From a virus (taxonomy: Duplodnaviria > Heunggongvirae > Uroviricota > Caudoviricetes), in the IMG/VR virus record IMGVR_UViG_2778261544_000011, positions 1-24,068 of that record: DNA of 24,068 bases; one strand, 5' to 3'. Of this stretch, positions 5,445-21,647 are shown one piece after another (position 1 is the stretch's first letter; the number at the start of each line of letters is the position of its first letter). Below the pieces are notes generated by a model. It saw nothing but the letters and a program-made list of their open reading frames with translations, ran no database searches and was not told the origin of the DNA. The translations under genes and the position numbers were made by a program.

Positions 5445-5990
5445 TCTGGCAGCCTCCTTGTACTGGTTTAAGGAGTCACCGCCTGAGTTGCTACGCTCAT
5501 AAATGGCGGTGACGCTGGCGGGGGTAGCAATACCGGCGTACAAGGAAACCGGCCAGCCTTTCGGCTGCCCCACCAGCGCCACCATAGATACAGTGCGGGC
5601 CTTGCCGCTGGGTATGGTTGCGCGATGGCATGACACAAAAAAAGACGCTGGGCGCGTCTGTGTCGCCTTGTACTGATTAAACGGGTTGCTACGCCCGATA
5701 CTCGATTCTGCCGAGTACTTTTATAAAATATCAACAACAGAATGAGTTGGCAAGTGTCTGTACGCATCAGCTATACAATGCATAAAAATACAACACACAA
5801 AGCTCATTACACATGAATTATCACACCAATTGGTTAATATCAATAAGCGACAATCATTGTATATGATACTGATTTTTATCATGTTTTACACATAAACTAG
5901 ACATTAACTGAGTTAATTTCATTGTTAATTGATATGATCCACGATTAAGAATGGCTACTTTTCGCCAAGGAATTTGCTACCCCTTACCAA

Positions 5991-6372
5991 TTATCTTGAA
6001 TAAGATAGCTTAACATACACAAATTATTTTCTTTTACCCAATACGCCACACCACCAGAGATGCGAAAAATTCACTTTAAAATCAATTTGATACACAAAAA
6101 GCAAAAACGAACACACAAAGGAAAAGATTTGTTTTTCCAGAAAAGACAAAAGAAAGCACTCCTGGATGTTCCAAGCGGCAAAGTCAAGGGCTATAGCGAA
6201 TTTGAAGCGCTTTAAAACATTCAAAACACACATCACCATTATCTTGATTGTTTTTTCGATTTTGGATAGTTGCGCTATTTGTGACCACGTTTATCTTGAA
6301 TAGTGTTATCCGTAAGTTGTTGATACCCGGCTATTCCCGTCTTTACTAATCTCTTCCCGCTTATCTTGAATA
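5991..6372. repeat. Four direct copies of TTATCTTGA(A/T)T(A) in an AT-rich intergenic region
   Basis: Copies at 5991-6002, 6239-6250 (ttatcttgattg), 6291-6302 and 6361-6372; the last abuts the stop of the GT-A-like gene. Confidence 0.6.
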
Positions 6373-11021: not shown

Positions 11022-11096
<75 letters not shown>

Positions 11097-11099
11097 ATA

Positions 11100-11175
<76 letters not shown>

Positions 11176-13415: not shown

Positions 13416-13571
13416 TTACTCCTCAGGTTCGTAAGCTGTGAAGACAGCGACCTCCGTCTGGCCGGTTCGGATTCGTACCTCGCAGAGGTCTTTCCTCGTT
13501 ACCAGTGCCGTCACTATGACGGTTAAACAGATGACGATCAGGGCGATTAACATCGCCTTTTGCTGCTTCAT
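13416..13571 (-). CDS. hok: Hok/Gef-family type I toxin (51 aa)
   Basis: MKQQKAMLIALIVICLTVIVTALVTRKDLCEVRIRTGQTEVAVFTAYEPEE is a typical Hok/Gef-family toxin sequence; ATG at 13571 preceded by AAGGAGAAG; an in-frame upstream extension to the ATG at 13628 could act as a mok-like leader frame. Confidence 0.8.
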   Translation of the reverse strand: MKQQKAMLIALIVICLTVIVTALVTRKDLCEVRIRTGQTEVAVFTAYEPEE

Positions 13572-13924
13572 AGCCTGCTTCTCCTTGACCTTTCGGTCAG
13601 TAAGAGGCAATCTATATGTGACGAGCATATAGGGGCCTCACTTCGATTTATAGTCGGGTGGGGCTTTTATCTATCTGCCGTTGGTGTTCATGCCCGAGGC
13701 AGATAGCCTCAAGCACCCGCAGCAATTCTACTTAACTCTCCTTTTCCCGCAAACCGTTTTTATCCTCAACGAAAATTTTACCAATATCGCCTAACACATC
13801 TCCCTTGCCCTGACGATGCTTACCTCTTTACACAGCCCCCAATTTATGTATTATCTTTTACAAACAACCAGTTAAGAGCTATCGGTGGGTGAGTTCGCCC
13901 TGCGGTAGCTTTTCCTTTATGCAT

Positions 13925-20007: not shown

Positions 20008-20472
20008 ATGAGAAGAAAACGCGAAGAAATCGCATCGCCGGAAGCTACGCAACGTCTGCGCGCAATCTGGGATGCAAAAAAAAGAGAGCTCAAACTGACT
20101 CAGGAGCTTGCTGCCGAGCTAATGGGTTTTGAGGCGCAATCTGCGGTTAGCCATTATCTCAACGGAAAGGCTCCACTTAATACTGATGCGGCATTAAAAT
20201 TCGCTGTATTACTAAGAGTTAAGCCTGAAGAGTTGAGGCCTGATTTAGCTGATCTGATGAATTACGTCCGTTCCTCAGGAACTTATGACGAAAGTTTCGA
20301 AGGCGAAGGTTGGCGGATGGTTAACAAGCAACAAGCTGATTTACTAGATCTTTTTGATATCCTTCCCGAATCAGAAAAAGCAAAACTAATCGAAAGACTT
20401 AAAGGTCAGAATGAACTCTACAAAGAAGCATTTGAAAATATGCTGGCAGCTCAAAAACGCATGAAGAAATAG
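20008..20472 (+). CDS. racR: Prophage repressor, RacR/DicA-like HTH protein without a peptidase domain
   Basis: 154-aa ORF with an N-terminal HTH and C-terminal LLDLFDILPESEKAKLIERLKG resembling DicA-family repressors; position matches racR in a Rac-type early region; symbol by context. Confidence 0.6.
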   Translation: MRRKREEIASPEATQRLRAIWDAKKRELKLTQELAAELMGFEAQSAVSHYLNGKAPLNTDAALKFAVLLRVKPEELRPDLADLMNYVRSSGTYDESFEGEGWRMVNKQQADLLDLFDILPESEKAKLIERLKGQNELYKEAFENMLAAQKRMKK

Positions 20473-20491
20473 CTCCCACCACCTCGTAACT

Positions 20492-20519
20492 AAACCGCCA
20501 TTTTTGGCGGTTTTTTTGT
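20492..20519 (+). terminator. Rho-independent terminator after the repressor gene
   Basis: AAACCGCCA-ttttt-GGCGGTTT followed by TTTTTTGTC. Confidence 0.6.
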
Positions 20520-20852: not shown

Positions 20853-21005
20853 ATGCAAAAAATCGACCTCGGCAATAACGAATCCCTGGTGTGCGGCGTG
20901 TTCCCCAACCAAGATGGAACGTTCACCGCCATGACTTATACCAAAAGCAAGACATTCAAAACTGAAACGGGCGCACGTCGCTGGCTTGCCAGAAATACTT
21001 GCTAA
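20853..21005 (+). CDS. Small protein (50 aa), YdaF-like
   Basis: Hand-translated MQKIDLGNNESLVCGVFPNQDGTFTAMTYTKSKTFKTETGARRWLARNTC; GAGGTG SD 7 nt upstream. Confidence 0.4.
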   Translation: MQKIDLGNNESLVCGVFPNQDGTFTAMTYTKSKTFKTETGARRWLARNTC

Positions 21006-21189
21006 TCCATTATTTGGATTAATTCAATATTCTCGCTGTAGGGGTATAGCAGAAACCACCAAAGCCCGGAGGTGGTGAAATAAAACTGGGCGCAACACGA
21101 AGGCGCATTTCCGATATCCATAAAGAGTCGGTCTTGTCTGTTAAATTTAAATAGTGGGAGTGCGCCTCCGGTTGTAAATAACGACATTG

Positions 21190-21251
21190 CTGTGTGTAGT
21201 CCTGGCGGCATCAGTTTTTTCTTGAAGTTCGGCTGATGTCCGCCCTTTTTT
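21190..21251 (+). ncRNA. DicF-like small RNA candidate ending in an intrinsic terminator
   Basis: GGCGGCATCAG...CTGATGTCCGCC hairpin (21204-21245) followed by CTTTTTT; recalls the 3' hairpin/terminator of the Qin prophage sRNA DicF; lies just upstream of the kilR-like division-inhibitor gene. Confidence 0.35.
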
Positions 21252-21425
21252 AAGTGAATTTTGTGATGCGGTGAATGCGGCTAAGCGCACGTGGCACAGT
21301 TAAAAGTCATGTTAGTCCTTATTGGTTTGGGTGGGAAAGCCGACTGTAATTGTTAACTGGTTGCAGTCACCTGGAGGCACCAGGCACCGCATCAACAAAG
21401 TTCATTTGTAAAAATGGAGATAATT

Positions 21426-21647
21426 ATGATTGCACATCACTTCGGAACTGATGAAATACCACGTCAGTGTGTGACTCCTGGCGATTATGTTCTTCATGAA
21501 GGCCGGACATATATTGCCTCGGCAAACAATATTAAAAAGCGAAAACTATATATTCGTAACCTGACTACAAAAACATGCATTTCTGACTGCATGATTAAAG
21601 TCTTCCTCGGTCGTGATGGTTTACCTGTAAAGGCGGAGTCATGGTGA
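21426..21647 (+). CDS. kilR: KilR-like small protein (FtsZ-targeting killing protein family)
   Basis: ORF 21414-21647; start at [12 protein letters not shown] (ATG 21426) with GGAGAT SD; 73 aa; resemblance to Rac KilR from memory. Confidence 0.5.

Follow-up and report, generated by a model that had tools for sequence, protein, structure and literature searches.

The hairpin and T-run between the ydaF-like and kilR-like genes of the window (that is, the whole stretch of 24,068 nucleotides of viral DNA that was analysed) are, to judge from the sequence, almost certainly the Rho-independent terminator and 3′ end of KilS, a 97-nt small RNA encoded at 21154..21250 (+). In the explanation that best accounts for the findings as a whole, and that we hold to be probable though by no means assured, KilS would be a diverged allele of the DicF locus which acts via an RprA-type seed on targets of RprA.

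The non-coding gap in which the hairpin lies extends from 21006 to 21413 (or 21425), about 410 bp. Upstream it is bordered by a gene of the DUF1391 family (20853..21005, +) whose product is identical to K-12 YdaF in 47 of 50 residues and whose counterpart in Qin is ydfA (YdaF and YdfA are both annotated as DUF1391 proteins in K-12). Downstream follows kilR, which encodes an FtsZ inhibitor (21426..21647, +; alternative ATG at 21414; 70 of 73 residues identical to K-12 KilR). The initial annotation had thus recognized both neighbours correctly, and further early genes of the window are equally close to K-12 (42 of 44 residues identical for YdaG and 89 of 91 for RacC). The framework GGCGG-C-ATCAGTTTT...CCGCCC-TTTTTT was found as that annotation had it: a terminator hairpin at 21204-21245 (+) with a GC-based stem of 13 pairs and one bulged U, in which GGCGGCAUCAG... 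is the partner of ...CUGAUG(U)CCGCC, is directly followed by the T-run at 21246-21251 (+). The GGCGG/CCGCC base of the stem is common to DicF, while the upper stem and loop are specific to KilS. The predicted fold of the isolated hairpin is at −19.0 kcal mol−1, and that of the 76-nt stretch 21180-21255 is at −21.4 kcal mol−1 (z = −2.33), which was equalled by 4 of 200 dinucleotide shuffles. A pattern-based terminator scan of the window did not list the hairpin, because its loop exceeds the 8-nt limit of that scan. On the minus strand no T-run follows the hairpin, therefore the terminator is one-directional (+). In Hfq-dependent small RNAs such a U-tail is usually the proximal-face site of Hfq. 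Two minus-strand open reading frames over the site (69 and 47 aa) were dropped, as they have no counterpart in the K-12 annotation.

When the gap was compared with complete E. coli genomes, a stretch of 97.7% identity was found in K-12 derivatives at about 1.418 Mb. At this place the curated MG1655 record holds the ncRNA gene kilS (b4833; ‘small RNA KilS'; 1418405-1418502, minus strand), between kilR and sieB. The copy in the window is identical to it at 96 of 97 positions and has one T fewer in the loop. The proposal of a small RNA gene that ends in an intrinsic terminator was therefore right, but the candidate is not new, since in K-12 this RNA has already been described, named and annotated (PMC8175672). 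KilS was predicted from RIL-seq data by Bar et al. 2021, who named it as a small RNA derived from the kilR 5′-UTR (PMC8175672). In K-12 it was verified by northern blot, is absent in an hfq deletion strain, accumulates in stationary phase and has its own transcription start site at 1418502 (PMC8175672 and its supplement). Its reported RIL-seq partner is yncL, found in Hfq-bound chimeras, and the total yield was only three interactions and a few hundred chimeras (PMC8175672). The K-12 mapping also corrects the extent of the RNA: an RNA of 50-60 nt had been expected, yet the transcript is of ~97 nt with its own start, and projected onto the window it covers 21154-21250, so that the range first marked (21190-21251) does contain the terminator but only the 3′ two-thirds of the RNA.

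The start site, the Hfq dependence and the stationary-phase expression are all K-12 data, and the promoter-proximal sequence is conserved in the window. There, TGtTAAATT at 21139-21147 (+), whose last base lies 7 nt before the start, reads as a probable extended −10 promoter of KilS; it has no good −35 hexamer, and a promoter scan needing both hexamers made no call at this place. The copy in the window and that of K-12 Rac have the same promoter-proximal sequence, terminator and neighbours (ydaF and kilR). They differ in that K-12 Rac carries sieB on the opposite strand between ydaF and KilS, whereas in the window sieB is absent and ydaF is directly followed by the KilS promoter region (21006-21153), and in that the immunity repressor of the window prophage is not RacR. 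The repressor-like gene, in the region 20008-20513 upstream of ydaG, encodes 154 aa of helix-turn-helix type with a sequence unrelated to K-12 RacR and is followed by a strong terminator at 20492-20513; the Rac-type early genes are therefore joined here to a different immunity module.

KilS-like sequence is widespread: of 5,426 complete E. coli genomes, 1,749, about a third, carry it (1,673 of them over at least 80% of its length), and it also occurs in inducible Rac-type phages; the region as a whole matches, at 97-99% identity, a stretch found in about 1,750 of the 5,426. In all 12 of the genome matches listed, no feature was annotated at KilS, which amounts to an annotation gap.

The relation of KilS to DicF was then apparent from gene order and flanking sequence. 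In Qin the order is ydfA(DUF1391)-ydfB-ydfC-dicF-dicB, and in the window, as in Rac, it is ydaG-ydaF(DUF1391)-KilS-kilR; each RNA gene thus occupies a slot between a DUF1391 gene and a gene for an FtsZ inhibitor, which bears out the equivalent operon position proposed by the initial annotation. The likeness that it had seen to the DicF terminator was also confirmed, since a GGCGG(Y)AUCAG...CCGCC base and a U-tail are common to the two. The whole gap aligns to the Qin spacer over most of its length, most strongly at the terminator base and in the homologous 3′ flank, about 180 nt downstream, with about 80% identity. Both RNAs are Hfq-dependent. DicF, however, arises by processing of the operon transcript and has 53 nt, whereas KilS is a 97-nt RNA with its own start site. 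Moreover, the 5′ seed of DicF, UUUCUGGUGAC, which pairs with xylR, is replaced in KilS by AUUGCUGUGUGUAGUC (the role of the DicF 5′ end is from PMC5069750), and KilS lacks the residues by which DicF pairs with ftsZ, xylR and pykA.

By the family model KilS is not a DicF. Against the Rfam DicF model (RF00039; gathering cut-off 48 bits), KilS of the window scored 37.6 bits (E = 1.1e-6 in a 501-nt search), a likeness greater than chance yet below the cut-off, compared with 76.7 bits for K-12 DicF and 39.1 bits for K-12 KilS as controls. At gathering thresholds Rfam gave no match at the KilS site; DicF, STnc100 and RprA surfaced only in a permissive search. The initial annotation had named the lack of a significant DicF model match, together with the lack of a stable small transcript, as evidence against it: the score is indeed below the cut-off, while a small transcript is known in K-12. 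The proposed DicF paralogue accordingly stands by descent and position (slot, flank and natural hybrids) and fails by family model and by the replacement of 5′ seed and loop. KilS is not a DicF in the functional sense.

A wider view of the locus was obtained with a 17-nt motif from the common 3′ flank, which is neutral as to the RNA itself and retrieved 132 loci from viral contigs and Escherichia and Shigella genomes. In the genome-collection scan the motif met mostly chance matches in unrelated phyla, real ones being found only in Escherichia and Shigella, so the scan says little beyond those genera. The 132 flank-anchored loci make up a single family of mosaic build, in which seed, hairpin and the gene that follows (dicB or kilR) vary. 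At least four types of seed occur (UUUCUGGUGAC of DicF, AUUGCUGUGUGUAGUC, CCAUGUUGAUU and CCAUGYGUAGUC) together with several hairpin types, and all combinations were seen; for example, DicF is located upstream of kilR at three loci and KilS upstream of dicB at one. Two loci are natural hybrids (L097, at 6225-6276, −, and L119), in which a DicF-type hairpin follows the 5′ part and seed of KilS; they lie upstream of kilR, in a prophage setting that also carries RalA. Both scored 63.5 bits against the Rfam DicF model, above the cut-off (hybrids overall, 61-63 bits), and such a hybrid, which has an anti-ftsZ loop, could combine both target sets.

Across 37 variants of this family, the five basal positions of the GGCGG/CCGCC helix are paired in 97.8% of cells. 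The terminator shows little covariation, with one compensatory change (GGUGG/CCACC) in three related sequences; support for the structure therefore comes mainly from the differing upper stems, as every variant folds as a terminator hairpin in spite of them. Mosaic loci, hybrids and the common base helix together indicate that KilS and DicF are alleles of one recombining locus, and the classification of KilS as a diverged DicF-locus allele in lambdoid prophages, with its two target-recognition parts exchanged, is well supported. KilS and DicF provide a clear natural example of modular small-RNA evolution, in which seed, hairpin and division inhibitor are shuffled independently.

The part exchanged at the 5′ side is of particular interest. 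The putative seed AUUGCUGUGUGUAGUC at 21186..21201 (+) corresponds to KilS nt 33-48 and matches RprA nt 60-75 exactly (24 of 26 positions if the stretch is extended). The window has this 16-mer only once, and no copy with up to two mismatches turned up in 100 shuffles. Against the Rfam RprA model (RF00034) the window reached only 27.2 bits (E = 0.5; cut-off 70), in an alignment that held the perfect run. The core UGCUGUGUG is kept across KilS variants with different hairpins. Processed RprA consists of the last 47 nt of RprA (PMC9262595), therefore its 5′ end begins at exactly the AUUGCUGUGUGUAGUC stretch.

An equivalent cut is known in KilS, where an RNase E site was mapped at K-12 position 1418471, that is, KilS nt 32, in the context AC|AUU (PMC8175672 supplement). 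In the alignment, AC|AUU is at the position of GA|AUU in RprA. Both fit RN|WUU, the RNase E cleavage motif reportedly described by Chao et al. 2017. The 5′ segment that ends at this site (nt 1-32; 21154..21185, +) is predicted to mask part of the seed: in the fold of full-length KilS, the 3′ half of the seed is paired with nt 3-13 (−16.2 kcal mol−1 for the 5′ end with the seed), and after cleavage at nt 32 only a marginal 5-bp hairpin is predicted to be left at the seed. Cleaved KilS (~65 nt) would thus have the make-up of processed RprA, namely the 16-nt seed, a spacer of 2-3 nt, a GC-rich terminator and a U-tail; in addition, the RNase E sites are at aligned positions and the partner yncL is common to both RNAs.

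KilS is nevertheless not a member of the RprA family. It lies at a prophage locus and not between ydiK and ydiL, has no Rcs-type context and ends in a different terminator. It also has no GGAAAUCCCCUG part, which RprA uses on the rpoS leader: with its rpoS-activating region (GGAAAUCCCCUG...AACGAAUU), RprA is predicted to pair at rpoS −135..−93 with −32.4 kcal mol−1, whereas the best KilS duplexes lie elsewhere. KilS therefore resembles processed rather than full-length RprA. The identity also has a practical side. One of the two northern probes published for KilS, probe 2 (AGGACTACACACAGCAATGTCGTTATTTAC), covers KilS nt 21-50, including the 16 nt identical to RprA (PMC8175672 oligonucleotide table). 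Since RprA (about 105 nt) and KilS (98 nt) are similar in size, and both are Hfq-dependent and increase in stationary phase, cross-hybridization is possible, and reads or probes over the common stretch could confuse the two RNAs.

Predicted pairings of the 16-mer were compared with a background of 100 chunks of 400 nt of unrelated K-12 DNA (best energy −14.2 ± 1.9, minimum −21.6 kcal mol−1; pairing energies ignore the accessibility of the target). For the 5′-UTR of csgD, 15 consecutive pairs at −99..−83 gave −24.2 kcal mol−1, and for that of ymgC 14 pairs gave −23.0 kcal mol−1, both stronger than all 100 chunks. Pairing with the 3′-UTR of yncL, at −18.2 kcal mol−1, is at the 6% level of the background, and a longer KilS segment has a second candidate site in the yncL 5′-UTR (−43..−16; −20.8 kcal mol−1). 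When each RNA was taken with its own flanks, the pairing of KilS was at least as strong as that of RprA for csgD and yncL and slightly weaker for ymgC (−23.8 versus −26.0 kcal mol−1). These three mRNAs are all among the RprA partners common to RIL-seq and TRIC-seq (bioRxiv 10.1101/2025.09.11.675593). As the predicted pairings follow automatically from the identity of the seed, they are not independent evidence, and the one independent support for RprA-like targeting is yncL as common partner. The ftsA-ftsZ and nlpD regions showed no notable match to the common seed in the 16-mer pairing; ftsA and nlpD are listed as RprA partners and presumably use other parts of RprA.

The course of events that we propose is as follows. 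KilS would be transcribed, as the K-12 copy is, from its own start site just upstream and end at the terminator. RNase E would cut it at nt 32|33 and so remove the 5′ segment that partly masks the seed, leaving a form of ~65 nt whose working seed, 2 nt ahead of the terminator, is the sequence with which processed RprA begins. Through this seed, processed KilS would pair with yncL, csgD and ymgC, which would give the prophage a way, independent of Rcs, to act on part of the RprA regulon (curli and biofilm, small envelope proteins). The case for KilS acting in this manner on the three targets after RNase E processing is about evenly balanced. If it holds, a phage has copied the seed of a host regulator, and an RNA with one known partner receives a function; the seed identity predicts that Rac-type prophages feed into the control of curli and biofilm (csgD) and into other RprA targets. 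The same terminator would limit transcription into the toxic kilR, both from the KilS promoter and from further upstream.

An altogether different output had been expected by the initial annotation, which foresaw a second division-inhibitory function. Here KilS would work as a paralogue of DicF, repressing the translation of ftsZ through antisense pairing and providing Rac with a second division block beside KilR. We consider this very unlikely, although locus and scaffold are shared with DicF, the sub-threshold model match has a low E value, and L097 and L119 demonstrate that some Rac-type prophages do have a DicF-type hairpin upstream of kilR. The ftsZ-pairing residues of DicF lie in its 3′ region (PMC5069750). 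In the alignment, the ftsZ-pairing stretch ACUCCGUGACUGCUC is replaced by UUCUUGAAGUUCGGCUG in KilS, as is the ACUCCG loop with which DicF pairs with the ftsZ ribosome-binding site; eight weak pairs, A-U and G-U, could still join a U-run in the KilS loop to GAGAAACU at the start of ftsZ. When duplexes were predicted for whole RNAs they came out unrealistically long, and the established pair of DicF and ftsZ did not stand out from shuffles (z = −0.5), because of which short windows, genomic background and hairpin-opening costs were adopted. By this crude measure (duplex with ftsZ −45..+15 minus the cost of opening the RNA's own hairpin), net predicted pairing was −13.3 kcal mol−1 for DicF and −15.2 kcal mol−1 for the L097 hybrid, but −5.9 kcal mol−1 for KilS. 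Weak net pairing and the loss of the anti-Shine-Dalgarno CUCCG make an ftsZ function unlikely for this allele, and ftsZ is not among the KilS RIL-seq partners (PMC8175672). KilS of this allele probably does not repress ftsZ.

Less improbable, yet still unlikely in our estimate, is that the element serves mainly in cis, as an attenuator before the toxic kilR, with the 97-nt RNA a by-product that has no role in trans. The terminator ends 175 nt before kilR, expression of kilR needs read-through and rises when termination by NusG/Rho is weakened (PMC10798246), and KilS has very few RIL-seq partners. An action in cis is indeed to be expected in any event, because the terminator is placed between the KilS promoter or the early operon and kilR, and the two roles are not mutually exclusive. 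What a by-product leaves unexplained is the Hfq-dependent accumulation, the specific yncL chimeras and the 16-nt host-identical seed that was kept while the adjoining hairpin was exchanged, since a terminator needs no seed. Alternatively, KilS could be a decoy or competitor that titrates Hfq, RNase E or RprA targets and sponges, or that pairs with RprA via its 5′ end, and so modulates RprA. The seed and the RNase E context are the same as in RprA, and the KilS 5′ end, which can pair with the seed of KilS itself, can also do so with RprA (−13.1 kcal mol−1). The latter pairing, however, is no better than that of shuffles, 8% of which do as well, so the 5′ end was rejected as an RprA sponge; moreover, no KilS-RprA chimera was reported, and an identical rather than complementary sequence cannot sponge RprA directly. 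A decoy role is hardly probable. Trans action of KilS through the RprA-type seed, with the terminator also working in cis, remains the preferred reading.

The seed is not confined to KilS. Viral contigs searched with its 14-nt core UGCUGUGUGUAGUC gave 118 usable matches, and in 96 of them a hairpin and T-run follow within 62 nt, with 34 different hairpin beginnings. The survey is biased in that the query was the seed itself, but chance matches would not be expected to have a terminator immediately behind the seed in about 80% of cases. About 20 of the 118 are KilS and about 39 have an STnc100-like body upstream (...GGCACCGGGAGGCACCCGGCACCACAAC...); several upstream contexts exist, for example GACCGCAACGAAU..., and a few matches look like genuine rprA genes of other genera. 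Some matches may be host rprA genes on contigs misassigned as viral.

The STnc100-like type is found in phages SfV and SfIV and in related Salmonella and E. coli phages; one such element (L250, 8010-8232) scored 43.1 bits against a cut-off of 47. In these phages the element lies downstream of cI, which in SfV (L352, 2501-2762) is in the early operon, and ends in UGCUGUGUGUAGUC and a GGCGGUACCAG terminator; it looks like a second, unannotated phage small RNA with an RprA-type seed. The 5′ body of this SfV-type element is homologous to the kilR leader of the window (21252..21425, +). Besides its homology to the spacer between dicF and dicB in Qin, the leader has a likeness to the STnc100/PasD scaffold that extends to the hairpin CCUGGAGGCACCAGG; the corresponding match to STnc100 (RF02076) at 21234-21433 (+), 37.7 bits with a cut-off of 47, thus concerns the leader rather than KilS. 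The leader may serve in processing, in antitermination or in the translational control of kilR. Unlike in STnc100/PasD, where the scaffold forms the body of the RNA, here it follows KilS. The window and its relatives all score below the cut-off, and PasD and STnc100 are reported near the Q/late region.

It is tempting to go further and see in KilS a prophage copy of the working end of RprA on a DicF scaffold, giving Rcs-free control of csgD/curli, ymgC and yncL. ‘UGCUGUGUGUAGUC plus terminator' would then be a module in early operons of many enterobacterial temperate phages, carried on interchangeable DicF/KilS and STnc100/PasD scaffolds, and DicF, KilS and STnc100-like RNAs would be one recombining, seed-swapping superfamily. 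This extended proposal is tentative, and we place it a little below an even chance.

In the searchable literature, which includes few subscription journals, we found no prophage RNA with an RprA seed, no link between KilS and DicF, and no report of the identity between KilS nt 33-48 and RprA nt 60-75. KilS itself features there in a single paper, that of Bar et al. 2021 (PMC8175672), in which DicF and RprA do not come up, nor do they in a recent preprint that links STnc100 with PasD. Elsewhere in the window, Rfam matches above the cut-offs were found at 13569-13718, 5502-5589, 5638-5718 and 11025-11175 (all −), and include a sok antitoxin RNA (106 bits), a C4 antisense RNA (82 bits), isrK (54 bits) and two tRNA genes.
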